Virus record (IMG/VR): IMGVR_UViG_3300025266_000001
Location: 1 to 63,128 of that record
From: a virus
Taxonomy: Duplodnaviria; Caudoviricetes
Strand: one strand, 5' to 3'
Length of the DNA stretch: 63,128 bases
In this document: positions 19,401-45,344 of the stretch, in pieces
Layout: the number at the start of each line of letters is the position of its first letter
Position numbering within the stretch: the first letter of the stretch is position 1
Notes under the pieces: generated by a model
What the model was told of the DNA's origin: nothing
Seen by the model: the letters and a program-made list of their open reading frames with translations, nothing else
Database searches by the model: none
Translations under genes and position numbers: made by a program

Positions 19401-22400
19401 CCTGAGTCTGTGTTCCAAAACTACTTGTCATTGTTAGAAATGTTTGGAGAGAATGCAGCGGTTCTTAGCCCTTCAAATATAAGTGAAGTCAACGAAATGA
19501 CTCAGGATATATTAAGGGTTATGGATGAAGAGTTCTCTATGGTAGAGGAGCTGGCTCAGAGATATGAGGCATATGACACGAAGGTAGAGAAAGATGGAAA
19601 CATTAATTTTGCTGAGACCGTAAAAAATATGTTAAATGAAAATCTGATAGACGAGACAGAGGCTGATCTTATGATGAAGCACAGGTCTAGCATTGTTCCT
19701 TCGGTAGAAAAGACAGTTAAAACTGAAGCGGAGATACAGGCAGAAAAGGATCAGGTTATAAAAAACATTCTTGAATCTAAGAAGGTATCTTCTTCTTCTT
19801 TACCTAGTAGAGACGAGGTTCTTTTGGCAAAGAAGTTTAAGAGCTTAGTAAAAAACAAAGAGGTTTTAAATAATTTATCTTTGGAAGATCTTAATCAGAT
19901 AGAAAAATTAATTCAGAATATAAACAACGGATACCTACCACACCTTTCACAGATAATGACTGAGAAAATGAATGCTATCATTGATGGTAATAAATTATCT
20001 TCAGCAATTAAGTCTGCAAAAATACCACGCTTCTCTAAGATGTATGCTAAGTTAAAAAACATTATACTTAGAAATAAAAGAGGAGCTATTTCTGAAGCCA
20101 TTAGAAGAAATCCTTTGTATTATATTGATCAAGTATTTGGAAATTTTAAAAGCAAAGCAATTTTCAATTCTTTATTTGAAAGGTCTTCTGTTGCTCAGGA
20201 AAAATTTAGTGTAGATTTAAAATCTGAAAACGGCAAGATAGATAAAGCGGAACAAGAGGTGTTCAAATCTTTTAAAAGAGATGGGAATAAAACATTGATA
20301 TCTAAGTTTAAGCAGATGGTTTATATGATCCAACTTGAACACGATTCTAACATAGGAAACCCGGAGGTTAATCAAGCGTCAGGGTTTATTAAAAAAACTA
20401 TTGAAAAGATCGACGCAGGGGAAACCACCTTTACTATGGATGATGCGGTTATGCTTCAAGAAATTTATGACAAATTTAGTTTTAAAGATAGTAATGGAAA
20501 GAGTCTAGAAATAGATATAGATAAACTGTATAAATCTTTTAATAAAGCTGAGGTTGAGTCTATTAAAACCATACAAGAAGTTAATAGAGGTCTTGGAGAA
20601 AAAGCTGTGTTCACGAGTGCTATTATTCGAGGAGATAAAATAAGCCCTAGAGATAATTATGTACACCTAAACGTATTAGCTGACACCAAGTCTGAGGCTT
20701 CGGTAGCCCCGACTACAATATCAGACTTTAATAAAAGCTTAAGACCATCTACAAAAGCAAAGTCTTTAATTAAAAGACAGGGTGTAACTTCGGCAATTAA
20801 CTTTGATATATATGCTTCAGCTCGCAAGGGTGTTAAAGGAGTTTTGTTAGACTATCATCTTACAGAGCCTATTAGAACTGCTAGAAGGACTATCATACAA
20901 GCAGAGGCTGCTCTTAAAGGAAATAAAACCAGAGTTGACACGGGAGATAGAGAAACTCTAACTGCAATCAAGGAAGCTTTTAATGAGGTTGTAGAAAATC
21001 TATTAACTAATTCATACACAGAAACATCTATAGGATCCGAGGCTTTAAAGTGGATACAGAAAAACGGGTACCGTGCAATTTTAGCAAGTGCTCCTAGATG
21101 GGTGGCTGAACTTTCATCTAACGCAGCTTTCGCTATGATCACTAATCCTGTTTCATTTATAGCGGGTAGTAAGTTCGGAGTTAGATTTCTAAACAGCGAT
21201 GTGGCTTCAAAATCAATGAGAGCATTAGGTAGCAAACAAACCACTCGCGTGTATCCTAACGATGATATGTCCGCCAGAATGGTAGACTCTAGACTTCTTA
21301 ATCAGACCGAGGGGGTGCGAGGAGGAAGAGCCGAGGGTAAGGTAAAAAACAAGCTAAAACAGATATGGAACACAACAGGCAAGAAGTATCAAGGAGCAGT
21401 GTCTGTGGTAGCGGATGGTTTAATTTCTACTCCAGATAAAATCGTAATGAGACCAATGTGGTTTGGTAAATTCTCAAATGAGTTTAAAAAAATAACAGGG
21501 ATCTCCCCAGACTTTGATAAGATTTCTGAACAGGACGAGGCTTATATGTCTAAATACGAATTAGAACTAAACCAATCTACTAAGGTTGCGGATGAAACAT
21601 CTGTAATGACGGGGTCAACCGCCAATCCTTTTATGGGGATATTGAAAGGTACAAGTAATCCTAATCAACATATTACCGTAAAGGCATTTAATGCTTTCAA
21701 TAATTTTATGACTACGTTTTTAATTTATGAATATGTAACGGCAAGAACAGGGATTGTAAATGCAATAGGAAGGGGTCACCTTACTAAAACAAAAGGAGCG
21801 CAACTACTTGCGGGATCTGTAACACGTATGGTAATGTACACGATGATGTCTCAGGTGTTATCGGAAGCATTAGGAGGATTAGCCGAAGATGAACCGGAAG
21901 AACCAAAGGATATAGAAAAAAAATTAGGTCAAGCATTTGCATCCACGTTCTCATCTATGCTATTTGGTAGAGACTTCGGAAACTCAACCAAGGCTATTGT
22001 AAATTGGGGGCTAGAAGAATTTAATAAAGAGTATTTAGATGGCTTAAGAGATGGCGATTATGACGTATATAAAGATAGTATCCAATACCAAATTGTTCCA
22101 AAGAGCAAAAGCGGTAAGGGGACTTCTATTGGTGATTGGCTAGTTAATATGTCAGCGTCATTAGGACCTATGGTAAAGACAATTGATCTTATATTAAAAA
22201 AAGCTACAGAAGGTCCTAAAAAAACGGAGGGTGCTATTCAAAGAAGATCAGATGAAATTTCTATTAGAATCCCATTAGAAGTTTTGGGTAATACGGGGTT
22301 CATTCCAATGTACAAAGATGTTAGAAAATTAGTTCTTAAATCTATGTATGACGGTATGGCTCAGAAAGCCGCAGCGTCTAAGGATAAAAAACAAAGAGCT

Positions 22401-22664
22401 ATAGATCTTCTTCAGGGATATGAAAACCAAACGGATATGAAGAGATATAATCCGAGTCTTTGGGCAGATACTTTTGGACCAAACTCTCCCGACTACTACT
22501 CCAATCAGCAGAAGCTAAAAGAGAAGAGTAACCTTAGAAAAGAAAAACAAAGATTAAAAGATCTTGAGAATGGATATTATCCTTTAAAGAAAAAAGGATT
22601 GTTTAGTGGACAAAAGAAAAAGGGATTGTTTAGCGGGCAAAAAAGAAAAGGACTGTTTGATTAA
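13461..22664 (+). CDS. Giant internal virion / polyvalent-type protein with zincin HExxH domain
   Basis: 3067 aa; Gly/Ala hydrophobic segment near the N-terminus; PHEIFH...EERLAE metallopeptidase motif; four RQQK motifs; no RNAP DxDxD loop recognised. Confidence 0.65.
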   Translation: MNEDYLLELYSFLGTQDQTFSQDVAFEQFVLDMGNESYAGNIRGFLAEKDPNFGKDVSLDEFLIDIKKKDGVEVVDSVSEAGPLDLQQPSVTKEKITEEDFFQGGFGDALRAFDSISPIGLGDFVDDMARSIASGRAQGLTSENAADLMIYGAGSSEEDIESFLEANKNSQNYGASAEMQDYQRIYEEEGKGVWGVVKGLAHNPSVLNEVILTSLSSLANNSDAMIAGGAVIGTSAGVGALTAGTAATAVVPVVGTVVGAAAGAYSGAVAAMPYAFGAASAMVEMGATFSELLQEELGNQEMTAENVREILEDPEKFTSIRNKAIARGAIIGTLDAFTGKVASGVGAKILTSSAKKSVTGMATRGGVMKSIGTGAGIESIGGSAGESLARAAIGQDQDISDIMLEGVTNLPGGVRSTLQARLSKPIYKVNGKKETAQTIDELIATMTPDQLASSDIKISNDYEGRAKKIQDIIVTGKTRQLVALANPELNDATLDAITALELQVKSFENNKTETGKSKVSELKAAIADLQEIQLADEVSQDVKNTFESLESSEQIQRKTEAGRVLLEEKTTALGPDSQENVSITDEEITQRALEIFSKEKPISNNNINKQYNQLSPKLKLTYVEQASDIMQEEAEDQGLTEFNFTEEDINERAAILLNEDLQGSKLQVEDNESVVGTSVDKKGRTVTYISKTTKKDGVTKTSFNFNRDDKDASQRGAAGVTLDEGLPDGYKVSENDAIEGYEITKVYEVREGDNGNNAATVEFTSPEESFRGEVVLEETNEVAKTPQKETQASDKVDEINKRREEELDSKAGRVFPITIENTKENSNLIKEKKNQEKKIDEINAKYDSEIANLTNEEQADIETFFSPDSKVDDTNTLSGSNLGINRNKAPKLNSQQNKNKNRLVRIAEMGAKAIAKVLPDVRMVLHESNEEYLRFAKEGKGRAEYHPENNIIHINLSEATTSTVPHEIFHAVLINKIKGDPAIAKAAEAMMLSVRKSLSNNSELAQKIDKFAAAYTGTQEQFQNEERLAELIGILSSAEAFKGLSKPTKNIIIQWLKDFAKKYGIKIGSDFGKKDSDVIDLLNTIARKTRTGEEIEESDIKSLEELDSGTNPVGTPTKIEPSKSRQQKIKFKDSYNKSLVNSSLSIDLNALIEDIHTKNQKVWFWVADQLGIDKELGLDGGPSFAHQNPNEIWASGMKLKAIEKNIAETDYLFIISGSPTQSQLFNKKVYDNTIEKLGDFNTFKDQAISTNAKSEIIQVLEAHDSWASLREDSTTDTAAKKKTPNKEAIDKKIGTGRKKFLYALGKTQNTPNTKFTQYMNSIDGYTDQNTFRDGFYRENDFKQNDIMLVLKPTGVQAGSNHSTYENTVLGEVVGVPDTKIDASEIMPNEMRIKMEGKPRNNTSQSVAPYGSGRRNIEPKSKSATRQQKSYKKSDLSSKNMIGFLDSLENALGINENGEQIDSGDGVIPKFINNGIIDKDLLAGVLLYEAPQRVLFISVNPTLEVVNFLELLNSQLNDKLILGTISYIKDQLPYLEKTKNIVDEKMGIMEDLGGSKKASLSDKIKSQQTAQSSLALKMKVGKAMTETINKTYDAIWKKYIEEDNGTKSLDNKSPSVRQQKDDYKPNDPVIVTRPVEVINAPKGVFVNVGMIEGQTDVEISQETIESRLPKDVKIIKSKVKKKEVGETEDTLLLKLSRPLTNTEMKDFLVSNKQQAIGQMVDGKGILYGNDQTEIDDNWGGEFSPQYFPTFNGTVLKSSPKARQQKDNERESSLERAMSEIDNIISKSKKRGTKFSKIPQNVVNYLQGTKVYEESTDVQREQMVRDVRELLGIKEKKAPSVKRILGDLKSAKTFTLTDKQLVIKTIKDLNRGANTAVKSFRIASQILAKEFTGMVKSGNLTIRQSAALVRKFSKVDMLSDASIENFVEYMARVVNNADYLNQISKARKLASRAKKNITKKIGIADAISNQLRTIFSIKPTLIPESVFQNYLSLLEMFGENAAVLSPSNISEVNEMTQDILRVMDEEFSMVEELAQRYEAYDTKVEKDGNINFAETVKNMLNENLIDETEADLMMKHRSSIVPSVEKTVKTEAEIQAEKDQVIKNILESKKVSSSSLPSRDEVLLAKKFKSLVKNKEVLNNLSLEDLNQIEKLIQNINNGYLPHLSQIMTEKMNAIIDGNKLSSAIKSAKIPRFSKMYAKLKNIILRNKRGAISEAIRRNPLYYIDQVFGNFKSKAIFNSLFERSSVAQEKFSVDLKSENGKIDKAEQEVFKSFKRDGNKTLISKFKQMVYMIQLEHDSNIGNPEVNQASGFIKKTIEKIDAGETTFTMDDAVMLQEIYDKFSFKDSNGKSLEIDIDKLYKSFNKAEVESIKTIQEVNRGLGEKAVFTSAIIRGDKISPRDNYVHLNVLADTKSEASVAPTTISDFNKSLRPSTKAKSLIKRQGVTSAINFDIYASARKGVKGVLLDYHLTEPIRTARRTIIQAEAALKGNKTRVDTGDRETLTAIKEAFNEVVENLLTNSYTETSIGSEALKWIQKNGYRAILASAPRWVAELSSNAAFAMITNPVSFIAGSKFGVRFLNSDVASKSMRALGSKQTTRVYPNDDMSARMVDSRLLNQTEGVRGGRAEGKVKNKLKQIWNTTGKKYQGAVSVVADGLISTPDKIVMRPMWFGKFSNEFKKITGISPDFDKISEQDEAYMSKYELELNQSTKVADETSVMTGSTANPFMGILKGTSNPNQHITVKAFNAFNNFMTTFLIYEYVTARTGIVNAIGRGHLTKTKGAQLLAGSVTRMVMYTMMSQVLSEALGGLAEDEPEEPKDIEKKLGQAFASTFSSMLFGRDFGNSTKAIVNWGLEEFNKEYLDGLRDGDYDVYKDSIQYQIVPKSKSGKGTSIGDWLVNMSASLGPMVKTIDLILKKATEGPKKTEGAIQRRSDEISIRIPLEVLGNTGFIPMYKDVRKLVLKSMYDGMAQKAAASKDKKQRAIDLLQGYENQTDMKRYNPSLWADTFGPNSPDYYSNQQKLKEKSNLRKEKQRLKDLENGYYPLKKKGLFSGQKKKGLFSGQKRKGLFD
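22587..22661 (+). repeat. 27-nt coding tandem repeat (KKKGLFSGQ, about 2.8 copies)
   Basis: C-terminus KKKGLFSGQKKKGLFSGQKRKGLFD. Confidence 0.85.
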
Positions 22665-23548: not shown

Positions 23549-23773
23549 TTAATGATTAAGAAATAAAGTTCCCATTAGGGGGTTTATTTTTTTGATTAAT
23601 AGATATATCTTTCTTGATTGTATTCGAGCTTCTTCCTTTGTTTTTTTAGTAGAGTCGGTTCCTAGGTTACAGTATATATCACAATCAATTCTAAGTAGTT
23701 CATCTATCTTCTTCTGGTCAGACCAGCTCTTAAACCCCGCAATTTTATCTATGTCGTTGGTATTATATTCCAT
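23549..23773 (-). CDS. Hypothetical protein
   Basis: Tightly coupled ORF in the minus-strand operon. Confidence 0.7.
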   Translation of the reverse strand: MEYNTNDIDKIAGFKSWSDQKKIDELLRIDCDIYCNLGTDSTKKTKEEARIQSRKIYLLIKKINPLMGTLFLNH

Positions 23774-24326
23774 TATAAAATTTATTTAACTTGGTTTCTG
23801 TTTCCTCTTCTCTGCCTAGGCGAGTACGTTGCACTACGATATCAATAAGCTTTTGAACCCGCCCTGTAGATGAGGTAGTGCGATCTCTCTCTCTGTTTAA
23901 TTCCTTTTTTAAATTATCTATTTCCAAATATAGGACTTTTTTTTCTATATTTATAGATATAATATCGTTTATTAACCCTCTGTTGCGGTATAACAGGGAG
24001 ACATTTTCATTGCTTGGTTCATAAGAATTGTTAAGAGTCCTGTCAAAATCTCTTTTTACTAATGTAAATTTTATATTAAAGTCTTCGTCTGTATGGAGAT
24101 ACATATCCAACTGCTTCATATAATGTATAATAGTGGCGTGGTGTTTTTCTATAAGGTTCCCAATGTCTGCAAACCCATAACCCCTTCTTCTCATTAACAC
24201 TCCAAAAGTGACACGGGCATTTACGTTATTTATTTTTCTATTTTTATCTAACAGTTTACATTGAAAATATTCTTCACATAACTTCATTAAAAATTCTCCG
24301 TCTTTGATAAGGTTTTTGTTCTTCAT
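23763..24326 (-). CDS. DnaA C-terminal-like HTH protein
   Basis: RKINNVNAR...FADIGNLIEKHHATIIHY resembles the DnaA domain IV signature (IG..F.RDHTTV.H). Confidence 0.6.
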   Translation of the reverse strand: MKNKNLIKDGEFLMKLCEEYFQCKLLDKNRKINNVNARVTFGVLMRRRGYGFADIGNLIEKHHATIIHYMKQLDMYLHTDEDFNIKFTLVKRDFDRTLNNSYEPSNENVSLLYRNRGLINDIISINIEKKVLYLEIDNLKKELNRERDRTTSSTGRVQKLIDIVVQRTRLGREEETETKLNKFYNGI

Positions 24327-31219: not shown

Positions 31220-31630
31220 TTATTTTGATTTTAATAGATTTAATTTTTGTGAGATTCTAGAGTATCGTGCCATAAGAACTGCACGACTCATCTTCCATCC
31301 CAATATTGCTTTTTTACTAACCCTTCCATTTACCTCTTGCTTAATGTGCGCCTCAATGTTAATAAGTTTTAGTCGAATATTCGTCAAAGATAATGTATAA
31401 ACCCCATATCTCCACCCTTTTTCAAAAAAAAGATTATATTCCTGCTCCTCAACCTCCTCATAATAGTCACCACCCTTGGTGGTGTTGTATATTTTTATTC
31501 TGAGTGTCTCACGATCCATTATGGATTTTATACCATATACGATTCTAGCCTCACAACACTTGCTATTAAGGTTCGTAGAATATTGATCATCTACTGACTG
31601 CTGGAACACATCTGCTAAATTATACTTCAT
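31220..31630 (-). CDS. Hypothetical protein
   Basis: Coupled ORF in the operon. Confidence 0.7.
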   Translation of the reverse strand: MKYNLADVFQQSVDDQYSTNLNSKCCEARIVYGIKSIMDRETLRIKIYNTTKGGDYYEEVEEQEYNLFFEKGWRYGVYTLSLTNIRLKLINIEAHIKQEVNGRVSKKAILGWKMSRAVLMARYSRISQKLNLLKSK

Positions 31631-31946
31631 CCTTAATGGTTTTTACTACTAGCTGGTAATCCTTGTCTTTTTTTACTATTTTTGCTGTCTTACGAATTCC
31701 ATAAGTGATAGAGGAGTGGCTTATAATGTATCCCCTTTCCGCCATATACTCTTGGATGTAAACCAGTCTCATAGGTCGTTTTGCACACAAATAATATAGC
31801 AGGTGTCGGGAATCAACAGCATCTTTTCTTTTGTTTTTTTCAAACAGCAGTTTGTCTTCAATGCTAAAAAGATCACACACCCTGTTTACATATTGGTTAA
31901 AAACGTCTTGCTTCATTATGTTTTTGATTTGAATAAATTGATCCAA
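31620..31946 (-). CDS. Second DnaA C-terminal-like HTH protein
   Basis: KNKRKDAVDSRHLLYYLC...ISHSSITYGIRK. Confidence 0.55.
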   Translation of the reverse strand: MDQFIQIKNIMKQDVFNQYVNRVCDLFSIEDKLLFEKNKRKDAVDSRHLLYYLCAKRPMRLVYIQEYMAERGYIISHSSITYGIRKTAKIVKKDKDYQLVVKTIKDEV

Positions 31947-32055: not shown

Positions 32056-32355
32056 TTAAGTTGTTGTGTAGTCAAAGGGTTTGTATTCTTCTTCGGTATT
32101 TTTTATTGCAATAATCAGTAGTATAAGGTATCCACAGAGATCAAATAATGTGTCTTCTGTAGCATCATTTAGTCCTTTGTTTTTTATTCTTGAAAGCTTA
32201 TCGTCTATTCTTGTGCACAAAGAGTCCACTGCGTCCCCGTTGCTGAAGATGTGAATTGGCTCTAGGGCTGAATTTCCATAAGCCTCGTTCTTTTCTAGTA
32301 GCATATTACGAACCTCGTCCGTTACGCTTATAATTCTTGATCTATTATCAGACAT
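32056..32355 (-). CDS. DUF1599 / nucleotide-modification-associated domain protein
   Basis: LLEKNEAYGNS, RIDDKLSRI, EDTLFDLCGY; likely start MSDNRS. Confidence 0.7.
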   Translation of the reverse strand: MSDNRSRIISVTDEVRNMLLEKNEAYGNSALEPIHIFSNGDAVDSLCTRIDDKLSRIKNKGLNDATEDTLFDLCGYLILLIIAIKNTEEEYKPFDYTTT

Positions 32356-32436
32356 TTTAATATAATTTAATTTTAACGAATTTACGACTAATTTAGGTCT
32401 AAAACTAATTATTTCCACCCTATTAGGTATAAACAA

Positions 32437-32590
32437 AGGTTGTGGGGGGTATATTATACCTTATCGGGTTCAATTAAATAATGCCTAAAGATATTCCCGT
32501 TACGTTGCTACGCAAGAGGCTTTACTTTGCTATATCTAAAGGCACTATCGTTGTTATCCCGTAATTGTGGTGTTATCCGACGTTAGGTGC
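32437..32590 (+). other. Candidate attI-like insertion site at the array start
   Basis: The first GTTAGGTGC core (32582) has no upstream hairpin arm; TGTTATCC direct repeat at 32552 and 32571. Confidence 0.4.
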
Positions 32591-32592
32591 AA

Positions 32593-32883
32593 TTAATAAG
32601 CACCGTTACTAAACCAATATTTCGTTTCACAATCTTCGCAACAATGTACTTCATCCCAATCCCAATAACTACCATCTAAAGTAGAACCTTTGCTTTCATT
32701 AAAGCATTTAGGATATTGCTCGTTGTTCACTACATAAGTTTCTGTTGTGTCATTGTGTACTGTGCCACAATTAGGGCAAGAGTATTCTTTACCCTTAACT
32801 GCACCTAACAATGTATATAAATCATTGCATTTAGGCATTGGCTTAGTTCCGTTCAATTTATGTTCAATATCTGCTGTATTCAT
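32593..32883 (-). CDS. Cassette gene, CxxC zinc-ribbon-like
   Basis: Starts in the att loop; LYTLLGAV arm peptide; CPNC...CEDC. Confidence 0.75.
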   Translation of the reverse strand: MNTADIEHKLNGTKPMPKCNDLYTLLGAVKGKEYSCPNCGTVHNDTTETYVVNNEQYPKCFNESKGSTLDGSYWDWDEVHCCEDCETKYWFSNGAY

Positions 32884-32943
32884 AGTTCTGTGTTTATTTA
32901 TTAATAATGCAACGCTTCATATACTAGTCCGTTATGTGTAATG

Positions 32944-33225
32944 CTACCCAAAGTTATCTATGTCAGCACTATCTCTATATTTCATTTCACAACCAATACA
33001 CTCAATATCTTCTAGTTCACTTTTTGTCATTTCACCTAAGTGATGTATGTTTTTTTCGTGTTCGGGTATCTTTTCACCGCACGCACTACACATAACACCA
33101 GATAAAATTAATTGCTCTTTTAGTGCTTCCCAAATAAGTTCAGGGCTATTAAATTCTGACCTAAATTCATCTTCAAAAGTATCTTCAATCTTACTTACTT
33201 TTTTTATAAATTCTGCTTTTTTCAT
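32944..33225 (-). CDS. Cassette gene, CxxC
   Basis: EQLILSGV arm peptide; CSAC...CIGC. Confidence 0.75.
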   Translation of the reverse strand: MKKAEFIKKVSKIEDTFEDEFRSEFNSPELIWEALKEQLILSGVMCSACGEKIPEHEKNIHHLGEMTKSELEDIECIGCEMKYRDSADIDNFG

Positions 33226-33285
33226 TTGTGTATTTTTATTTAATTTGTTTCTTAATTCTACGCAACTAATCTTATCTGCGATACG

Positions 33286-33513
33286 TTATGTGGCATTTAC
33301 TGCACGTCTAACATCAACCCAATATTTTCTAACAGAAACCACTCCCCAATTTTCTGCTTGTAATTCAATTTCGTCAATTACCTTATTTACTACTTTATTT
33401 GTTTCTTTATCGCTTGGCATATAACCATTGTCTTCATCCCATTCATATTGTTGAAACTTTTCTAATAAATCTTCTGCTTTTAATTTTGGACTCATAATAA
33501 AATAACGCCACAT
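33286..33513 (-). CDS. Cassette gene (MSPKLKAEDL; paralog of 24745-25047)
   Basis: Likely start at the second Met; stop TAA lies in the GTTA core. Confidence 0.75.
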   Translation of the reverse strand: MWRYFIMSPKLKAEDLLEKFQQYEWDEDNGYMPSDKETNKVVNKVIDEIELQAENWGVVSVRKYWVDVRRAVNAT

Positions 33514-33655
33514 AACAAAATATAAAAATAATAGCCTAGTTACGTGGTCTTATTAAAGGCTATTGTGTATTAATTAATTTAGTTTATAATTGAATATTTG
33601 TTTACTTTTTATCGGCTACTATTATTATACTAACCGTTACCAAAAATAAAAAATA

Positions 33656-33985
33656 CTAATCTTTCATCTTTTTAATAAAGTCCGTGAAGTGTAGAGTGTA
33701 TGCAGGATGAAATCCATTGTGTTTTAAAATACTTTCATCCATTATTATATCCATTGGTGTTTTAGGTATAATTTTGTCTTTTACTTCTTCTGTTAATGTT
33801 TCGTCAAGGTATTTATAAAACTCAATTCCAAGTCCGTCAATATCTTCATTGGTTAGTGTTTTACCAGCTTCTTTCCAATTTTTTCTAATAAAGTATCTAA
33901 AAATGTCTGTCATAATTATCCGTATTTTTTTACATTTGGTAACACCGTATAAAATCCATTGCGAAAAGCAACGTATCTTATACAA
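33656..33985 (-). CDS. Cassette gene, hypothetical
   Basis: Probable start at internal MTDIF inside the body. Confidence 0.65.
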   Translation of the reverse strand: MYKIRCFSQWILYGVTKCKKIRIIMTDIFRYFIRKNWKEAGKTLTNEDIDGLGIEFYKYLDETLTEEVKDKIIPKTPMDIIMDESILKHNGFHPAYTLHFTDFIKKMKD

Positions 33986-33995
33986 TTCGTTATGC

Positions 33996-34211
33996 TTAAT
34001 TTTTTAGCCAACATTCTATCCATAAGTTAAGCCAAAGTACTTGTATATCTATTGCGAAATGGTATTTACCTATATTGTTTTGTTTGTTAACTTTTAGCAC
34101 AAATCCAAAGTCTAGCCAATCCCAAATTATGTGAGGTTTAAAAAACATAAGCATAACACCGTATAAAGTCCATTGCTTTTTATCTTTTTGGTCACTTATT
34201 TCTTTACTCAT
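33996..34211 (-). CDS. Cassette gene, hypothetical
   Basis: MSKEI...KQWTLYGV arm peptide; Trp-rich. Confidence 0.7.
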   Translation of the reverse strand: MSKEISDQKDKKQWTLYGVMLMFFKPHIIWDWLDFGFVLKVNKQNNIGKYHFAIDIQVLWLNLWIECWLKN

Positions 34212-34295
34212 AATTTCTGTTTATTAATTAGTTTTGTCGCTTAATTAAAGGTTGCAACGTACCTTATACAGTCCGTTAGCAAACATAATTTGCTA

Positions 34296-34523
34296 CTATT
34301 CGCATTCATTACAATGTTCTTTTCTTCTTCCATTTTCATCGACTGTATAACCATATCCATCACAATTACCGCAAACAACGGATTTGCTAACAACGGGTAT
34401 CGTTAATGCTGTGTTGCAAGTTTCAATAATCATTTTACCCCATTCCTCATCAACTCGACCAAGTTTTATACCTGTTAAAAGTTGTACTTTTACTTGCTCA
34501 ATATCGTTTTTTAATTCTTCCAT
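34296..34523 (-). CDS. Cassette gene, DnaJ-type CxxCxGxG finger
   Basis: ALTIPVVS arm peptide; CGNCDGYG...CNEC. Confidence 0.7.
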   Translation of the reverse strand: MEELKNDIEQVKVQLLTGIKLGRVDEEWGKMIIETCNTALTIPVVSKSVVCGNCDGYGYTVDENGRRKEHCNECE

Positions 34524-34592
34524 TTTTATTAAGTTTTGTTATTATTAAATCGCACTAACCATACCCAAATACGTTGTGCTTAATACGGAATA

Positions 34593-34916
34593 CTAATAAA
34601 GGTATGGGTGCAAAGTTTGCAAACTATCTTTTTTTACTTCTTCCCAGATTATTTGATTATCCCAAGTGCAAGGCACAAACACTTGTTTGCAGTATAATTT
34701 AACTCCTGTTTTTCTAAGTTCAGATATTACATCTTCCATCTCTTCGTCACTCATATTGTTTGCGCCTTTTATGTTCTTGCTTACAAAGTCAGCGACTTGC
34801 AAACTCTCAGGTTGTTCGCATACATAACAACGGGTTTGTTTATCCGAGCAAGAAAAAAGTACTAAGCACAACAATGTATAAAGTGCATAGCGAGTAAGCG
34901 TTTTAATTAAGTTCAT
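34593..34916 (-). CDS. Cassette gene, putative lipoprotein
   Basis: ALYTLLCLVLFSC: the att arm supplies part of a hydrophobic signal ending in a lipobox-like FSC. Confidence 0.65.
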   Translation of the reverse strand: MNLIKTLTRYALYTLLCLVLFSCSDKQTRCYVCEQPESLQVADFVSKNIKGANNMSDEEMEDVISELRKTGVKLYCKQVFVPCTWDNQIIWEEVKKDSLQTLHPYLY

Positions 34917-35006
34917 TTTGTATCTATTTAAGTTCTTTATAATTCAATATTTCGTGCTGTTTAGGTCGCTACGACACCTTATACTAGACGTTAGAGTGCA
35001 TTGTGC

Positions 35007-35240
35007 TTAAATTACATCACCACATTTGGAGCAGGCGGTTATATCTACGCCACAAGTTATATCTGCTTGGTAATCGTGTTCGCACAACGTACCCTTCGGC
35101 ACACTAACACCAGATAAAATTAATTGCTTGGCTTCTAGCTTTTCTACATAAGACTCTAATTGGTCAACGTATTCTAAAAATCTCATTTTAGAACCTTCAT
35201 AATACATTACTCTTTCTGGTTTTGTTATTTCTTTACTCAT
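35007..35240 (-). CDS. Cassette gene, hypothetical
   Basis: MSKEI...KQLILSGVS; CEHDY...CSKCG. Confidence 0.7.
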   Translation of the reverse strand: MSKEITKPERVMYYEGSKMRFLEYVDQLESYVEKLEAKQLILSGVSVPKGTLCEHDYQADITCGVDITACSKCGDVI

Positions 35241-35294
35241 CGTTTATTTATTTAATTCGTTAATATTTCCGCAACTAATCTTATCTGTATAACG

Positions 35295-35441
35295 TTATAC
35301 ACAATAAATTAAACCTAACACTATCAATCCAACAAATAAAGTCATACCAACATAGTGTTTAATTAATTCTCTTGTCTTGTTAATATTTTTACCCTGTAAT
35401 TCTAATAAAGCTAATTTCATATAATATCCTCCTTGTAACAT
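35295..35441 (-). CDS. Cassette gene, 48-aa membrane peptide
   Basis: Hand-translated MLQGGYY...TLFVGLIVLGLIYCV; stop in the GTTA core. Confidence 0.5.
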   Translation of the reverse strand: MLQGGYYMKLALLELQGKNINKTRELIKHYVGMTLFVGLIVLGLIYCV

Positions 35442-35504
35442 AATTTTGTTTTTTAAATGGTTTAATTAAAAGTGTATAACATCGTACATAATTAATAAAT
35501 AAAA

Positions 35505-35645
35505 CTAACTGCGTGCTAGCTTTGTTTCAAGTTCGTATAGTGTAGTTAAACTAAGTACTGTATGGTTTCCATCATTTAAGCAGTCTCTAACAAGTCTAAT
35601 TAAGTACCTTCTTTCTGCTTCTGTTATTTTAATTTCGTGTTTCAT
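35505..35645 (-). CDS. 46-aa ORF inside an att loop
   Basis: Hand-translated MKHEIKITEAERRYLIRLV...KLARS. Confidence 0.5.
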   Translation of the reverse strand: MKHEIKITEAERRYLIRLVRDCLNDGNHTVLSLTTLYELETKLARS

Positions 35646-35691
35646 AATTCGTAATTTTAAAATTCATATTCTAATTCGCCGTTATGCGCAA

Positions 35692-35898
35692 TTAAAGTCC
35701 GTCATTTAACTCTTGTGGTTCTTTATTACATTTAGCACATATATACCCATATAGATGGTCTTTCACTTTTCCGAGTTCTTCTACATCCCAAAGTTCCTCA
35801 CCGTCTTTTTCAGTCACTTTTACTTTAAACTTTTCATTCCAAACATTGTATATCCTAATAAATTCATCAGAACCACATTCACATTTATAATATTTCAT
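35692..35898 (-). CDS. Cassette gene, Cys motifs
   Basis: YKCECGS...CAKC; fills the body exactly. Confidence 0.7.
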   Translation of the reverse strand: MKYYKCECGSDEFIRIYNVWNEKFKVKVTEKDGEELWDVEELGKVKDHLYGYICAKCNKEPQELNDGL

Positions 35899-35953
35899 TT
35901 TTAAATCAATTAAAAGCGCATAACAACGTATAAAATTAATGCGCTTGGTTATA

Positions 35954-36214
35954 CTACTTTTCTAGTACATATCTAAGGTGTTTAACCTCTTTTCCTTTCG
36001 TGTGCACTTGTATTCCTATGCTTGTAGGTGTGCCGTTATTGTCAGCCATTCCGCAAACACTTACAACCTCGCTTACTTCAATTACTTCGTGCTGTTCTTT
36101 TTCTACAACCATATAAGGGTAGTTAATAGAACCGTTTTTAAAATCCTCAATCTCTTTTTTTGTAAAATATTTCATTGTTTTTTGTTTAAGTTTATTATTA
36201 ACTAACCCTAACAC
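35954..36214 (-). CDS. Cassette gene, hypothetical
   Basis: Likely start MKYFTKKE. Confidence 0.65.
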   Translation of the reverse strand: MLGLVNNKLKQKTMKYFTKKEIEDFKNGSINYPYMVVEKEQHEVIEVSEVVSVCGMADNNGTPTSIGIQVHTKGKEVKHLRYVLEK

Positions 36215-36341
36215 AAAATATAATGCATAGCTAGTATTGGTTTATTTATTAAGTTGTTCGGTATTTCCGAACTACTGTATTATTTATTTTGGTTCGTGTA
36301 TTGTAACGCTACGCACCATATTCAAAACGTTATGTGTAATA

Positions 36342-36545
36342 CTACTTATCTCGCCAAGTCCATCCTAAACACCATTTGCAAAACAGTCGGTTTATTAACT
36401 TTGGTTTTTTTGTGAAATTAAATTCAATCGTATTTACTTTTGTCCCTGTAATTTCGTAACTACCTACAACTTTAGGTGTTTCAATTTGATTTAATGTAAA
36501 TGTGTTATTTTCCATTTTAATTAAGTTTGTGCTAAACGTTAGCAT
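36342..36545 (-). CDS. Cassette gene, hypothetical
   Basis: Likely start MENNTF; KKPKLINRLFCKWCLGWTW. Confidence 0.65.
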   Translation of the reverse strand: MLTFSTNLIKMENNTFTLNQIETPKVVGSYEITGTKVNTIEFNFTKKPKLINRLFCKWCLGWTWRDK

Positions 36546-36553
36546 TAATATTA

Positions 36554-36739
36554 TTAATCACAACCGCACTCGTAGTTATTATTAGTGTTCATTTCCTCTT
36601 TGCAGTCTCGGCATCTAAGTATTATTCGTGTGGTTAGTTGGTTCAACCGTTCATTTATTAAGTCTGTTAAGTCTTTTTTTGATAATCCACTTCTAATATG
36701 AAAATTCAATTCATTTAAAAAAAGTTCTTCTCCTGTCAT
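36554..36739 (-). CDS. Cassette gene, hypothetical
   Basis: CRDC...CGC; lies in a degenerate unit. Confidence 0.6.
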   Translation of the reverse strand: MTGEELFLNELNFHIRSGLSKKDLTDLINERLNQLTTRIILRCRDCKEEMNTNNNYECGCD

Positions 36740-36794
36740 AATTCATTTATTTAATCCGTTAAAAATCTAATCATATACTCAACGTTGTAGCCAA

Positions 36795-37049
36795 TTATTT
36801 GCTATCCTCTATAAATCGTTTAACTATTCTCTCCAAAGCAAGGTCTTTGTAATTGGTAGGCATAGCGTATTTCAATACCGCAAATAACTGTTCGCTTTGC
36901 CCTACAACATCGGCTATAATTAATTGCTGGGCTTCTGCTCCTTTATGAAATCCGTGCATAAAACCATTGCATTCATCTTGGTTAAATCCTAACTTAATAT
37001 AATCATTAAGTGCTTTTTGAAACTCTTCTGTGTATTTTTCGTTTGTCAT
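36795..37049 (-). CDS. Cassette gene, hypothetical
   Basis: QQLIIADVVGQSEQL arm peptide. Confidence 0.7.
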   Translation of the reverse strand: MTNEKYTEEFQKALNDYIKLGFNQDECNGFMHGFHKGAEAQQLIIADVVGQSEQLFAVLKYAMPTNYKDLALERIVKRFIEDSK

Positions 37050-37106
37050 TATCTATAAATTTTAGTGTTATTATTTTGCAACTAATCATAGCCGTGAGCG
37101 TTAGAG

Positions 37107-37343
37107 TTAATTGCCCTTTTCAGGTGTTATCCTTTTACCACATTCGCAACTTAAATAAGTCCAATCAGAGTTTACATAGTATTTGCATTCGTGGACGGGC
37201 AACGTAACACTAACACCAGATAACTTTAATTGCTCTTTATGGTATTGTTTAGCAAATTCGGTCATTGCATTTAGTATACTTTCATTACTATTACCTACCT
37301 CTACACCGTTTAAGTGTTTGTTTAATATTATTTGTTTATTCAT
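37107..37343 (-). CDS. Cassette gene, hypothetical
   Basis: EQLKLSGVS arm peptide; HEC...CECG. Confidence 0.7.
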   Translation of the reverse strand: MNKQIILNKHLNGVEVGNSNESILNAMTEFAKQYHKEQLKLSGVSVTLPVHECKYYVNSDWTYLSCECGKRITPEKGN

Positions 37344-37396
37344 TGTATTTTATTTAATTCGTTAATATTTCCGCAACTAATCTTATCTGTATAACG

Positions 37397-37585
37397 TTAG
37401 CAACCATTAGACCACCAAGTTTCGCACTTTTTACAAGCATAAGAATTTTCTGTAAGTGTTGTTTTATGTCCTTTAGATTTACATTTATGGCAAACGGAAT
37501 TGCTAACAACACCTATATTTAATTGCTTACTTTCTTCCGTTTCTCTAAGGTTTCTAATTAATAATTTACTGTTTCCTTTTCTCAT
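37397..37585 (-). CDS. Cassette gene, CxxC
   Basis: KQLNIGVVS; CHKC...CKKC; stop in the GTTA core. Confidence 0.7.
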   Translation of the reverse strand: MRKGNSKLLIRNLRETEESKQLNIGVVSNSVCHKCKSKGHKTTLTENSYACKKCETWWSNGC

Positions 37586-37640
37586 AACTTTATTATTCTA
37601 ATACGCAACTCTCGTTATCTGTACAACGTTATATTTAATG

Positions 37641-37925
37641 CTAGATTCCAATGTATTCAAAAACGTGTCCAACAAATTCACCTTTTTGATATTGGTAAGT
37701 TCCAATGTATTTTCTATCCACACCCATATCATATTTGATTTCGTGACCTGTTCCAAATAATTCAAAAATCCTTTCCTCTTTTCCATTGTCTGTTTTAACC
37801 ATTACCCACATACAGGGCTTAAATGTTTTTTGGTCTTGTTGCACCGAAAGTATTTCAGCGTCTTTAGGTATTTGCAATTTTGTAAGTTCTTCAAACTCTA
37901 ATTCATATTTCCAAATCGTGTACAT
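37641..37925 (-). CDS. Cassette gene, conserved-looking phage protein
   Basis: TIWKYEL...AEILSVQ...GTGH...YIGTYQ...HVFE pattern. Confidence 0.75.
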   Translation of the reverse strand: MYTIWKYELEFEELTKLQIPKDAEILSVQQDQKTFKPCMWVMVKTDNGKEERIFELFGTGHEIKYDMGVDRKYIGTYQYQKGEFVGHVFEYIGI

Positions 37926-37955
37926 ATTTATTTTGTTTTTAATTAATTAACCGCA

Positions 37956-38093
37956 CTAAAATATAACACCAGATAAAATTAATTGCTTATTTCTATCATT
38001 TAAAATCGTATATGCTTCAGCTGTAATGTCTCCGTTCTGGTGTAATCGCTTTAAAATACGTTCAGTTTCTTTTAATTGTTTTTTGTTCTTCAT
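37956..38093 (-). CDS. 45-aa ORF starting in an att loop
   Basis: Hand-translated MKNKKQLKE...KQLILSGVIF*. Confidence 0.5.
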   Translation of the reverse strand: MKNKKQLKETERILKRLHQNGDITAEAYTILNDRNKQLILSGVIF

Positions 38094-38142
38094 TGTTTAT
38101 TTTGTTAAGTTATTATTCACGCAACTAATCTTATACAATTCG

Positions 38143-38316
38143 TTACCCCTCCACATTCAGTATATCACATTTTCTTTTACCAATGTGTAGTTCTACTAAA
38201 GCCGTATCAATCAAGCTGAAGTCTTCTGAATAGTCATAGAACAGACCTTCAATCTCCAGTACTTCTCTTACTGTTGTACAGTTTGCTATGGCTGATATAA
38301 ATTCTTCTTTAGTCAT
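38143..38316 (-). CDS. Cassette gene, 57 aa
   Basis: Hand-translated MTKEEFISAIANC...NVEG; stop in the GTTA core. Confidence 0.55.
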   Translation of the reverse strand: MTKEEFISAIANCTTVREVLEIEGLFYDYSEDFSLIDTALVELHIGKRKCDILNVEG

Positions 38317-38439
38317 TTAGATTGGTTTTGTGGTGGTGGTGTTGGGTAATAAAAATTAACAATACTTTAAAGATGTTTATCAATTTACTAATCTTTCCAT
38401 AATTTTTTCTTTCCTTATTACTATTCGTTGTAAAACATA

Positions 38440-38688
38440 TTATTGACCTAATCTTTTTTGTTTCATCGAGCAACCTAAACATTGTTGTTTACATTCTTCA
38501 CTTTCCTTTACGTTAACTGCATAGCAATAAGACGATTTTACAACACCGCATAAATCAAATGCAACCATATACCCCATCTTAAAACCAAACGCACCGTCAA
38601 GGTTGTTTATATATCCCTTTTTTTCAGCTTCGTTACAGAGGTTATCCATTACTTTAGCCTGTTCTTTTGTTAATTTTATTTTATCCAT
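38440..38688 (-). CDS. Cassette gene, hypothetical
   Basis: AFDLCGVV arm peptide; CKQQCLGC. Confidence 0.7.
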   Translation of the reverse strand: MDKIKLTKEQAKVMDNLCNEAEKKGYINNLDGAFGFKMGYMVAFDLCGVVKSSYCYAVNVKESEECKQQCLGCSMKQKRLGQ

Positions 38689-38700
38689 AATTATATTTAA

Positions 38701-38877
38701 TTACACTTGATTTATACGTACAACGTTGTAATCACATTTAACAACATCGGGCTTTTCTTGTTTTTTTATATAATCATTCGCTTTTTTTTCAGATGTAAAT
38801 CGTTTAGTATATCTTTCTATTATCGTTTCATAGTGTACTACCCAAACACCCCTTCTTAATTTTTGTTTTGTAAACAT
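38701..38877 (-). CDS. 58-aa cassette gene crossing the 38725 core
   Basis: Hand-translated MFTKQKLRRGVWVV...KCDYNVVRINQV*. Confidence 0.5.
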   Translation of the reverse strand: MFTKQKLRRGVWVVHYETIIERYTKRFTSEKKANDYIKKQEKPDVVKCDYNVVRINQV

Positions 38878-38940
38878 TTTTATAAAATTTTAGTTAATAT
38901 TTCCGTACTACTTACAACAACATATATAAACAATTAAAAA

Positions 38941-39090
38941 TCACTTCTTGCCATTTATTAACCATAGTTCTACTAAAACCATAGCAGCAATTAAGCAAAT
39001 TGTATTTTCAAATCCTTGAAAGTGTTTAAGTGCTACCAGAATTAAAGTGATTACTACTGCTACTATTGCGTCTGTTATTCTTTTGTTCAT
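38941..39090 (-). CDS. 49-aa two-helix membrane peptide inside an att loop
   Basis: Hand-translated MNKRITDAIVAVVITLILVALKHFQGFENTICLIAAMVLVELWLINGKK. Confidence 0.55.
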   Translation of the reverse strand: MNKRITDAIVAVVITLILVALKHFQGFENTICLIAAMVLVELWLINGKK

Positions 39091-39136
39091 TTTATCTAAT
39101 TTTTAAAAGTTCATATATGAGTACGTTATGCCACAA

Positions 39137-39415
39137 TTAAAGGTTTTTAGCCTTCCATTCTAATTGCTCTATTACACCATTACAATCTAAATCATACTGT
39201 TCAGCTATGTGCTTACCTAAAACCTTTAACAGTTCACTTTGTTGGCTAACACCAGATAAAATTAATTGCTCTTTTAGTTCTTTATTTTCAGATTTTAAGC
39301 TAGAATTATTATCCATTAATTTAATATTGTCTTTAGCTAAATATTCTGCTCTTTTTTTATAATCTATCTCTTTTTTCATTGTATTTTTATTTAATTCTGT
39401 TAATAATTTACGCAA
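39137..39415 (-). CDS. Cassette gene, coiled-coil
   Basis: Likely start MKKEIDY; EQLILSGVSQQSEL. Confidence 0.7.
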   Translation of the reverse strand: MRKLLTELNKNTMKKEIDYKKRAEYLAKDNIKLMDNNSSLKSENKELKEQLILSGVSQQSELLKVLGKHIAEQYDLDCNGVIEQLEWKAKNL

Positions 39416-39610
39416 CTAACCCTAACCGCATACGCTACCTACGACACTACTCTTCGTCTTTCAATTCCTTTTCCACTTCCTTTAGCCAATTATTTATAAC
39501 CTTGTCACACCATAAGTCTATTAATAAAGTTGATCCTACTACAACCCTAACCAATGTAAAAGGAAGGTGTAGTAATGTAGTGGTGTACAGTGTTGTTTTT
39601 TTAATTATTA

Positions 39611-39666
39611 GTAGATAGTGAGGAATCGAACCTCATACTCGTCAGTAGTGCACACACACCTATCTT
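39611..39666 (-). ncRNA. tRNA-like mini-element (acceptor stem + T-arm)
   Basis: Minus strand AGATAG...TGAGG-TTCGATT-CCTCA-CTATCT; too short for a full cloverleaf. Confidence 0.6.
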
Positions 39667-39674
39667 TTGATACA

Positions 39675-40247
39675 TTATCCTTTTACTACGTTAACTGAAT
39701 AACCTAACTTCTCCTCAATCTGAGCAACTGTTAGGTCTGTTTTTTGTTCGATGATGGTAGCCCATTTGCCTTTTTTGAACACGTCATATCCAAAAGACCC
39801 CGAACCCCACCACAAAACATTATTGCTTTTTAATGTTTTAAACCCGCCCTTATCTAACGTGCGATTACGTGACGACCCCATACCTTTAATAGTAACCCCC
39901 TCTTTAAACCCTCTCTTCTTAGCTTCGTTTATTAAAGCAGTTTCGACTTCTTCGTCGGTGGCAGGGGTAAGCGTGTTTGACGGTGGCGCAGAAAAATCAC
40001 GAGTGTCTTCACTAAATATGCTATGTCCAACAACACTCCATCTTCTAAAATCGCCTTGGTATCCTACAAACGGAAATACAGAGCCTTTTGACAAATCACA
40101 ATAATGCTCGGTAAGCTTATACCACTTACCAACCACCAATTCAGTTTCCTTGAATAGTTTTGGGAACTCCTTTTCTATCTTGGTTTTCCAATCTGTACAC
40201 GCTTCGTTGTGAGCTTGTAAAATAAATTCTTTTCTTGATTCTTTCAT
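39675..40247 (-). CDS. Hypothetical protein
   Basis: 190 aa; PATDEEVETALINEAKKRGF and LTVAQIEEKLGY. Confidence 0.8.
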   Translation of the reverse strand: MKESRKEFILQAHNEACTDWKTKIEKEFPKLFKETELVVGKWYKLTEHYCDLSKGSVFPFVGYQGDFRRWSVVGHSIFSEDTRDFSAPPSNTLTPATDEEVETALINEAKKRGFKEGVTIKGMGSSRNRTLDKGGFKTLKSNNVLWWGSGSFGYDVFKKGKWATIIEQKTDLTVAQIEEKLGYSVNVVKG

Positions 40248-40304
40248 AATGTTATTTTATATTTATGTAAAGTTATAAAAATTATCCTTAATTTACTAAT
40301 AAGG

Positions 40305-40350
40305 TTGTGAATAGGGAGGAATCGAACCTCCCAAAGCACCGTGCTATTCT
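40305..40350 (-). ncRNA. tRNA-like mini-element (acceptor stem + T-arm)
   Basis: Minus strand GAATAG-CACGGTGCTTT-GGGAGG-TTCGATT-CCTCC-CTATTC-ACAA. Confidence 0.6.
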
Positions 40351-43516: not shown

Positions 43517-43566
43517 GATAACGACGCTTCTCAGCGTTTCGCCTCATAAAGGCTCATCAGGTTACC
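43517..43566 (-). ncRNA. Hammerhead ribozyme (type I), canonical core
   Basis: GGTAAC-CTGATGA-GCCT-TTATG-AGGC-GAAA-CGCT-GAGA-AGCG-TC-GTTATC. Confidence 0.9.
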
Positions 43567-45204: not shown

Positions 45205-45344
45205 AAAACGATTTTGAAATAATAAATAAATATATATATATACAATATCTCCACCCCCCCCCTAGAGAGAAAAAAAAACAACATTTTTTTTATATGAATT
45301 AATTGTCTACCTTTGTCTTTATTATAAATAAAAAATCAAATCAA

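Follow-up and report, generated by a model that had tools for sequence, protein, structure and literature searches.

We have analysed the complete genome of a phage (Duplodnaviria; Caudoviricetes), the IMG/VR record IMGVR_UViG_3300025266_000001, whose 63,128 nt with direct terminal repeats are called here the window. It is a marine phage, and its host is probably among the Flavobacteriaceae. Our subject is an array of hairpins and small open reading frames (ORFs) between 32.6 and 39.4 kb, and in particular the non-coding site at its left end (32437-32590), which an earlier reading, made from the letters alone (the sequence-only reading), had proposed as an entry site for gene cassettes similar to the attI site of integrons. 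The plus strand of the window contains the structural and packaging genes. A block of minus-strand genes runs from about 44.1 down to 23.7 kb and encodes a Sak annealing protein, a PDDEXK exonuclease, a primase-helicase, an SNF2-type helicase and a VRR-NUC nuclease; the replication module begins directly after the flagged gap. The array takes up about 7 kb, 11% of the complete phage genome, and the G+C content drops to 31-32% across it.

The array is formed by imperfect hairpins with ...AAC/GTT... feet, located between small minus-strand ORFs. There are about 25 of these ORFs (32593-39415, 45-109 amino acids); 23 of the 25 have no PHROG family, and only one cassette ORF has a Pfam family above the cut-off (DUF7352). 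Upstream of most of them, the sense strand has a 5' arm of the form AT(T/G)-N6-(T/C)AACG-N4-5-(G)TATA(A/T)G. A profile obtained from 17 copies of this arm has 18 matches in the window, all of them on the minus strand between 32.9 and 39.1 kb and none elsewhere in the 63 kb. The 3' arm has the partner form ...TTTATAC-N2-3-GTT(A/G)... and is found about 31, 100 or 165-180 nt downstream of the 5' arm.

These arms are predicted to form duplexes. For 78 sites from the window and from other contigs, the mean duplex energy is -24.0 kcal/mol, against -16.3 in shuffled sequences, and -18 kcal/mol or better is reached by 67 of the 78 sites but by only 20 of 78 shuffles. For covariation, five sources supplied a set of 16 short hairpins, where 92.9% of the cells are paired (82.4% in shuffles) and 22 double changes are found (7.3 in shuffles), values which none of 500 shuffles reach, while controls with slid partners give 28-57% paired. 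The gene-sense strand is the more stable one in 74 of 81 elements (-23.4 vs -16.8 kcal/mol). Shuffles give the same preference in 56 of 81, so compositional bias explains only a part of this asymmetry. The general architecture is that of attC sites: imperfect inverted repeats R''-L''...L'-R', AAC/GTT cores and folding as a single strand, with lengths of about 45-205 nt. A covariance model built for the short hairpins gives a convincing score within the window only for its own member.

All units are on the minus strand. From left to right, hairpin 19 (32800-32940, T of the 5' arm at 32934, GTT at 32809) overlaps the start of the ORF at 32593-32883. It is followed by hairpin 18 (33087-33294, 5' arm at 33288, GTT at 33096), a member of the long class which encloses a leader, an ATG and 36 codons, by hairpin 17 (33507-33645, 33639 and 33516) and by hairpin 16 (33934-33998, 33992 and 33943), a short one which scores 59.8 bits with the covariance model. 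Next come hairpins 15 (34148-34284, 34278 and 34157), 14 (34382-34582, 34576 and 34391), 13 (34863-34999, 34993 and 34872), whose 3' arm is part of the signal-peptide sequence in a lipoprotein-like ORF, and 12, again of the long class (35099-35303, 35297 and 35108). A 5' arm at 35674-35694 (35684) has no convincing partner, and similar orphan or weak arms are found at 36787 and 37631 (-9.8, -15.7 and -19.6 kcal/mol for the three). Unit 10 has collapsed to 35915-35957 (TATAAC at 35951, GTT at 35924). The remaining units are hairpins 9 (36203-36338, 36332 and 36212), 7 (36899-37109, 37103 and 36908), the long-class hairpins 6 (37205-37405, 37399 and 37214) and 4 (37958-38151, 38145 and 37967), hairpin 3 (38535-38734, 38728 and 38544), hairpin 2 (38909-39134, 39128 and 38918), which encloses a 49 amino acid ORF at 38941-39090, and the decayed outermost hairpin 1 (39241-39443, TAGCG at 39437, GTT at 39250).

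The most informative feature of the array is the way in which its cores are paired. Using curated positions, we have compared the 10 nt which start at the GTT of each 3' arm (GTT+7) with the 10 nt ending in AAC, both of its own hairpin and of the next hairpin downstream. With the foot of its own hairpin there are 5.2 Watson-Crick matches out of 10, which is the background level (5.4). With the foot of the next hairpin, across the gene body, there are 8.4. The next foot is the better partner in 14 of 16 cases (p = 0.003), and one of the two exceptions (GTT at 38544) has a 9/10 partner 108 nt downstream, which had been missed in the list of arms. A gene body thus has a core and an inverse core of its own at its two ends, and the feet seen in the array are hybrids of two cassettes. 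Such cassette boundaries, with complementary cores and hybrid array sites, define integrons, and they are found in the window. Hybrid feet are the footprint of site-specific recombination of the integron type inside the foot. This pairing is predicted neither by an RNA structure formed in situ, nor by homologous exchange between repeats, nor by transposon ends. Core pairs are also visible in the phages phi13:2 and P12002L, in the viral contigs L072, L060, L046 and L082 and in the bacterial loci L140, L143 and L145. An automated version of the test, in which GTT positions and next arms were mis-assigned, gives no signal (6.7 vs 5.5 in the window, 6.0 vs 5.8 in other phages); our conclusions rest on the curated test and on the lists of pairs.

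Core pairing also changes along the array. From left to right the matches are 10, 10, 10, 9, 10, 9, 10, 9, 9 and then 5, 7, 9, 9, 3, 8, 7, a decay with a Spearman rho of -0.79 (p = 2.4e-4, n = 16). This bears out the sequence-only reading, where pairs of 9-10 were described in the first units and partial ones beyond 35.9 kb. Its decayed hairpin at the right end is also there: at about 39437 the sense strand has GGTAGCG, so that CGCTA takes the place of CGTTA on the plus strand, and the left box has diverged.

At the left end, the sense strand of the flagged site reads stop-TTGCACC-TAACG-TCG-GATAACACC-ACAATTACG-GGATAACAAC. Its leftmost core, ATTGCACC-TAACG with the T of TAACG at 32585, lacks the usual left box and, as had been noticed, a partner arm. 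Its best downstream duplex (-12.8 kcal/mol) is no better than that of shuffled controls (mean -16.3). The inverse core of the last cassette, sense TGCACCTAAC, lies at 32582-32591 (minus strand); it is a half-site of the crossover type without a partner arm, and it is complementary in 10 of 10 positions to GTTAGGTGCA at 32800-32809. The direct repeat that had been reported there is also present: TGTTATCC is found on the plus strand at 32552-32559 and 32571-32578 (sense GGATAACA), the two copies being 19 nt apart. The number of copies in the whole genome (4 vs 2.3 expected) is not above chance. Both copies at the site are kept in three TARA contigs (L124, L125 and L126), which share 36-48 nt of this region with 91-100% identity and have unrelated sequences on either side. 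We call the 36 nt at 32550-32585 (minus strand), which comprise TAACG, TCG and the two GGATAACA repeats, the terminal block. In the three contigs the block is found 3' of a methyltransferase gene at a convergent junction, or 5' of a small ORF and packaging genes. Conservation stops just past the second repeat and does not extend to the rest of the gap. An exact 17-mer of the block has a single match in viral contigs, inside a gene, which was judged to be due to chance and discarded.

The gap itself had been given as 150 nt, a length which depends on a TTG start at 32436 (minus strand) for the ORF 32056-32436. The family match of this ORF covers it only from residue 26 on, and there is an ATG at 32355; judging by this alignment the TTG is probably wrong and the ATG the true start. 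The non-coding gap then more likely has a length of about 237 nt (32356-32592). In its part outside the block, 32356-32549 (minus strand), two segments at about 32483-32495 and 32532-32544 form an imperfect inverted repeat of 13 nt, and the next gene has its A-rich leader there.

In many cases the hairpins extend into the cassette ORFs. The loop of the long class holds a leader, the ATG and about 36 codons, and the ORF then crosses the 3' arm in a single frame, as (E/K)QLILSGV. The arm is translated in this way in about 20 ORFs, spread over many contigs, whose N- and C-terminal parts are otherwise unrelated. Five of these arms are in the window (33093-33115, 35105-35127, 37211-37233, 37964-37986 and 39247-39269), and about 15 other contigs also have them. 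The fixed codon usage in this arm indicates a constraint at the nucleotide level. Other copies of the 3' arm are translated in a different frame (ALYTLL), once within a lipoprotein signal peptide. A block of about 195 nt in hairpin 18 (33093-33287) is 90% identical to one in contig L051, and both flanks are unrelated. The same 44 N-terminal residues are thus fused to different C-terminal parts. In contig L060, the homologue of the ORF at 33656 has a different hairpin upstream, which supplies an N-terminal extension.

The same hairpins are found in arrays of many IMG/VR contigs, for example L072, L060, L082, L046, L041 and L058. Cultured phages also contain them. Cellulophaga phage phi13:2 has an array at about gp026-gp036, followed by a tyrosine recombinase gene, and one arm matches in Tenacibaculum phage Larrie. 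Polaribacter phage P12002L (L128) has nine copies of the profile on the same strand, which flank methyltransferase and HNH genes. Two attC sites have been published for this phage, both of them tested (Qi et al. 2023, PMC9892861); according to the sections of that article on which we draw, both were called by HattCI and one also by Infernal. We find that P12002L_attC1 is a member of our hairpin family (L128, 29997-30064). P12002L_attC2 spans the non-coding stretch after the last array gene; its sense strand reads ...TTGTGCC-TAAC-AACGGATAAAAC..., and its counterpart in the window is ...TTGCACC-TAACG-TCGGATAAC... (32550-32591). In the same sections, P12002L_attC2 is reported to have recombined with attI1 under IntI1. 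A viral contig, G005 (L035/L121), codes for a Xer-like recombinase of 271 amino acids, 34% identical to the enzyme found beside bacterial arrays; its gene is downstream of three hairpins on the same strand, the layout seen in bacterial arrays. By NCBIfam, neither this protein nor phi13:2 gp038 is an IntI. A megablast search of the array against phage records gave no match, 23 loci with a homologue of a 126 amino acid neighbour protein all lack the array and the motif, an Rfam search of 30-46 kb gave only two matches, both below threshold, and nothing relevant was found in the literature on repeats of Cellulophaga and Tenacibaculum phages.

The covariance model of the short hairpins matches 18 of 151 sampled Bacteroidota genomes. 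This overturned the idea of an element restricted to phages, suggested by a 22-mer of the 3' arm that has only one match, in a 1.2-kb contig, among 185,579 species genomes. In the annotated bacterial loci, the hairpins separate unrelated small or mid-sized genes, such as those for hydrolases, DUF4440 proteins, a WYL regulator, ParDE and an AAA ATPase. A gene for a Xer-like tyrosine recombinase is found within about 6 kb of the hairpins in five of the eight positive genomes checked (G114, G113, G142, where it is a fragment, G106 and G070). G074 and G149 each have a homologue on another contig, and G054 has only generic matches at the level of Xer. The integron-like arrays beside these recombinases are L140 (G114:C1), L145 (G106:C5), L138 (G113:C2) and L146 (G070:C14). 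L140 also has a 36-nt unit without an ORF (GTTGAAGATG...CATCTTCAAC), repeated several times.

These bacterial arrays give the polarity of the system. L140 and L145 have an identical 40-nt sequence before the recombinase gene, which starts right after a partnerless ...YAAC half-site; the half-site of L145 is complementary in 10 of 10 positions to the GTT core across the first cassette. The attI end therefore corresponds to the 3' end of the 5'-arm strand, which is at 32.58 kb in the window. By analogy, the half-site at 32550-32591 occupies the position of the recombinase-proximal site of Bacteroidota, and the polarity given by the sequence-only reading, with the attI-like end at the left, is right. 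On the other hand, its statement that the array is oriented against phage transcription is wrong as worded, because the cassette ORFs run in the same direction as the whole 44.1-to-23.7 kb minus-strand block. It is the direction of the ORFs relative to the polarity of the sites that is inverted, when compared with bacterial arrays, where the 5'-arm strand is antisense to the genes in all 10 well-paired sites with annotated neighbours.

Natural variants of the left end were found in Logan metagenome contigs, the only source of our population data, with depths taken per contig; the sequencing runs listed include none of RNA. In run X4, a 7.1-kb contig with a depth of 186 follows the window up to 32584 and continues with 63 nt unlike it. 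The depth in this run is about 41 at 32670-33003 vs 175-234 over the array at 33095-39271, so the dominant strain there carries different leftmost cassettes. In run X5, a contig of an abundant phage joins 32585, a 21-nt arm, a stretch of 251 nt identical to 35951-36201 of the window, and then the sequence from 38140 on. The same 251-nt cassette thus adjoins the terminal block in the X5 phage and is ten genes away from it in the window.

We interpret the region from 32.6 to 39.4 kb as an integron-type cassette array without its own integrase, similar to a cluster of attC sites lacking integron-integrases (CALIN), with the flagged site as the equivalent of the attI end; we give this interpretation a probability of about 60%. 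The integron-like nature of the array is well supported. The role of the block as its entry site is putative and moderately supported. If the sites are of the attC type, the array fits the definition of a CALIN (at least two attC sites and no integrase nearby), with about 16 paired hairpins and no recombinase. An attI site, a partnerless core with accessory binding repeats at the integrase-proximal end where cassettes are inserted, would fit the position of the block, its half-site, its direct repeats, its conservation in four contexts and the polymorphism which starts there; the sequence of the block is unlike the bacterial counterpart. As for the proposal that cassettes enter at the left and age rightwards, the decay of core pairs agrees with it, while entry at the block stays a putative step.

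A cassette would consist of one small ORF and a structured recombination site. The imperfect hairpin of this site combines a foot (...YAAC / GTTR...) with a left box of the GTATAAG type and an asymmetric internal loop, and it folds best on the gene-sense strand. Crossovers inside the foot would make every foot of the array a hybrid and leave each gene body between a 10-nt core and an inverse core of its own. At the flagged site, the half-site (TGCACC-TAAC) is joined to a conserved tail of 31 nt, which contains the two direct GGATAACA repeats. Cassettes may be inserted and excised there by a Xer-like tyrosine recombinase acting in trans, from the host or from a co-infecting phage. Those adjoining 32585 would be the youngest. 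The Sak, exonuclease and resolvase set of the phage may add homologous exchange between conserved arms.

Several results weigh against this interpretation. The window has no match to PF00589 (tyrosine recombinases) anywhere in the complete 63-kb record, and a Pfam scan of 71 of 84 selected ORFs detects no recombinase (tyrosine or serine) or transposase family; no integron integrase gene, as found in a complete integron, adjoins the array. The recombinase associated with bacterial arrays passes NF040815 and scores 202 bits with TIGR02249, below the cut-off of 265, so it is not a canonical IntI. XerA is the best relative with a solved structure, and the alignment with IntI4 is split into two pieces, which indicates that the IntI-specific insertion is lacking. 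The consensus fold has no conserved extrahelical base or bulge of the kind which, in the L box of integron sites, sets the choice of strand; its asymmetry consists of an internal loop of 5 nt vs 2-3 nt and fixed G:U pairs. In a blunt count of 9-of-10 pairs, the bacterial regions L140, L138 and L143 do not exceed their own shuffles. P12002L_attC1, a typical hairpin of this family, gave no verified junction with IntI1 in the experiments described in the sections of PMC9892861 that we cite. P12002L has two identical 70-nt elements of the terminal type (L128, 29240 and 37266, minus strand), one after the last methyltransferase gene and the other between a Mom-like gene and gp52; as such an element may also be internal, a terminal block need not mark an entry site. 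The 36-nt block has no clear resemblance to the sequences beside Bacteroidota recombinase genes, a comparison suggested by the sequence-only reading, and it is found in none of 283 genomes of the order with most hairpin-positive genomes. Breaks in homology are also found at the 3' arm, both between the window and L051 and at position 36201 in run X5, and one crossover point alone does not account for them; exchange probably takes place at this arm as well, perhaps through the homologous recombination proteins of the phage. Finally, the X5 phage lacks the window cassettes between 36201 and 38140. The replacement starting at 32584/5 in run X4 agrees with the expectation that strain-specific cassettes cluster at the left end, but the X5 phage also differs internally: variation is anchored at the block but not confined to it.

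The array may be of the integron type while the block at 32550-32585 has no entry function, being instead a variant or truncated last site, or a mini-cassette without an ORF. The internal copy of the two P12002L elements agrees with this, as do the portability of the block, with unrelated outer flanks in four contexts, the ORF-less 36-nt unit which adjoins the recombinase-proximal site in L140, and the classification by Qi et al. of the corresponding sequence in P12002L as attC and not as attI, according to the part of PMC9892861 used here. But the block lies at the end defined by polarity, where bacterial arrays have their recombinase-proximal half-site, cassette replacement in X4 begins at it and the age gradient points to it, and we consider this alternative unlikely. 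The two TGTTATCC repeats could also have nothing to do with cassettes, and be sites for a phage helix-turn-helix protein similar to DnaA domain IV, as an operator or origin for the downstream replication and recombination genes. In the DnaA box, the conserved half is TTATCC. The gap is immediately followed by the replication module, and weak matches to Bac_DnaA_C, which do not reach the curated cut-off, are found in the ORFs 31620-31946 (E 1.7e-5) and 23763-24326 (E 5.4e-4). This is very improbable: the block is always fused to a ...TAACG half-site, and it precedes convergent genes in L124 and the packaging module in L126, not replication genes.

Another explanation concerns the hairpins themselves, which might be regulatory modules (mRNA structures, terminators or promoters) shuffled by homologous recombination through Sak, like the promoter early stem-loops (PeSLs) of T4-type phages. 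The fold of the elements is best on the transcribed strand and includes G:U pairs, conserved leader motifs are found 3' of hairpins, some homology blocks break at either arm, and the phage encodes the Sak single-strand annealing protein together with a PDDEXK exonuclease and a VRR-NUC resolvase, with no site-specific recombinase among the ORFs scanned; ORFans flanked by PeSLs are also described, in the parts of the PeSL literature we rely on, as forming mini-circles without an integrase. We find this quite improbable, since feet in situ are not complementary beyond AAC/GTT (5.2/10) while the ends of gene bodies are (8.4/10), the folding strand is antisense to the genes in bacterial arrays, and regulatory signals are not enriched in the array: 26 sigma-70-type promoters vs 38.2 expected, in a scan which does not cover Bacteroidota-type promoters, and one intrinsic terminator vs 2.1 expected. 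Nor do the elements look like miniature inverted-repeat transposable elements (MITEs), spreading within and between phage genomes, in spite of their terminal inverted repeats, their size classes (about 60, 130 and 200 nt) and the 195-nt unit 90% identical between unrelated contexts. All 18 copies in the window have one orientation, where MITEs, which have conserved terminal inverted repeats and target-site duplications, insert in either; interiors are mostly unrelated, no transposase is present among the ORFs scanned, and the variable self-complementary 6-7 nt beside AAC/GTT belong to the gene bodies and not to the hairpins; we regard this as scarcely credible. Both the MITE reading and that of an element acting only as RNA were dropped after the result of core and inverse-core pairing. 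The motif was first read as a promoter for a virion RNA polymerase, which was rejected: the candidate, an ORF of 3067 amino acids at 13461-22664 (plus strand), lacks a DFDxD motif and has neither a Pfam family nor a relative in the PDB; a PHROG match, to a family of unknown function, is limited to the C-terminal third. The available part of a preprint on phage phi14:2 reports no common early motif.

The array shares several features with chromosomal integrons, which consist of intI, an attI with accessory direct repeats and cassettes bounded by attC: the R''-L''...L'-R' organization with AAC/GTT, complementary core and inverse core, hybrid array sites and cassettes which are mostly ORFans. The array in the window ends in a site without a partner, where two direct repeats come ahead of G|TTAGGT; this recalls the layout of the DR1/DR2 arrangement of attI1. 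Unlike chromosomal integrons, the window has no intI, its ORFs are on the folding strand, many ORF starts lie inside the hairpin loop and the consensus fold shows no conserved extrahelical bases; in the related bacterial arrays, the difference is an adjacent recombinase without the IntI-specific insertion. The closest known systems are the CALINs of virulent phages, and especially that of P12002L, which, as presented in the sections of PMC9892861 considered here, has the same hairpin family, a terminal half-site, cassettes with accessory genes and, like the window, no integrase in the phage. Only two sites were published there, where we find nine profile copies, vs about 19 units and a conserved terminal block in the window. 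The PeSLs of T4-type phages are also similar in several respects (small ORFans in a hyperplastic region, conserved stem-loop repeats, modular shuffling, no dedicated integrase). Each PeSL is, however, a module with a strong sigma-70-type early promoter and a terminator stem-loop, moved by homologous recombination, according to the passages of PMC2839356 and PMC4122927 that we follow; the repeats in the window have neither signal enriched, and their ends have the hybrid-site footprint of integrons.

Phage CALINs are thus already in print, including two sites of this family in P12002L (PMC9892861). Compared with the portions of the published work cited here, what appears to be new is the size and completeness of the array, the proof of hybrid sites, the gradient together with natural turnover, the inverted orientation of the ORFs, the terminal block and the link to arrays with a Xer-like recombinase. 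Integron components in phages have been reported so far as rare, small clusters; here we find an array of about 19 units with a defined end, an age gradient and natural turnover. Our results point to a cassette-exchange system common to phages of marine Flavobacteriaceae. A wider proposal is tentative and may well go too far: these phages would share an integron-like system in which ORFan cassettes, with the hairpin upstream and the ORF on the folding strand, are inserted at the 36-nt attI-like block and traded among unrelated phages. Catalysis would be due to Xer-like recombinases without the extra domain of IntI, provided by hosts or by phages (for example that of the contig behind L035), and, as many ORFs start in the hairpin loop and continue through the 3' arm (QLILSGV), exchange at the arms would also recombine N- and C-terminal protein modules. 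The site family is found in three cultured Flavobacteriaceae phages (phi13:2, P12002L and, with one arm, Larrie) and in dozens of viral contigs, which provides culturable test systems. It raises the questions of how lytic phages gain and shuffle ORFan genes, possibly with anti-defence functions, whether a Xer-like enzyme can run an integron-type system, and whether phages and Bacteroidota chromosomes use a common pool of cassettes.

A few other features of the window were observed. A GroEL-like chaperonin and two GroES/Cpn10-like proteins are encoded on the plus strand at 45303-46925, 47004-47261 and 55509-56072. To the right of the array, two tRNA-like 3' halves (GAGGTTCGATTCCTC and GGAGGTTCGATTCCTCC, with an acceptor-like tail) flank a 190 amino acid ORF on the minus strand, at 39608-39649 and about 40300-40350; ARAGORN and Rfam make no call on them. 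Many metagenome contigs stop at 39608 and 39649, and the depth has a peak at 39350-39683 (up to 2460 in run X3), so this piece is widely shared. The related contig L002 has a similar minihelix 3' of a hairpin. At 43531-43569 (minus strand) there is a match to a type III hammerhead ribozyme, below threshold (22.7 bits, cut-off 48.5). L002 has a clear CTGATGAG...CGAAAC core in intergenic DNA (6007-6114), and contig L003 (322-381) has the flanking sequence of this hammerhead-type core in common with it, up to CTG.

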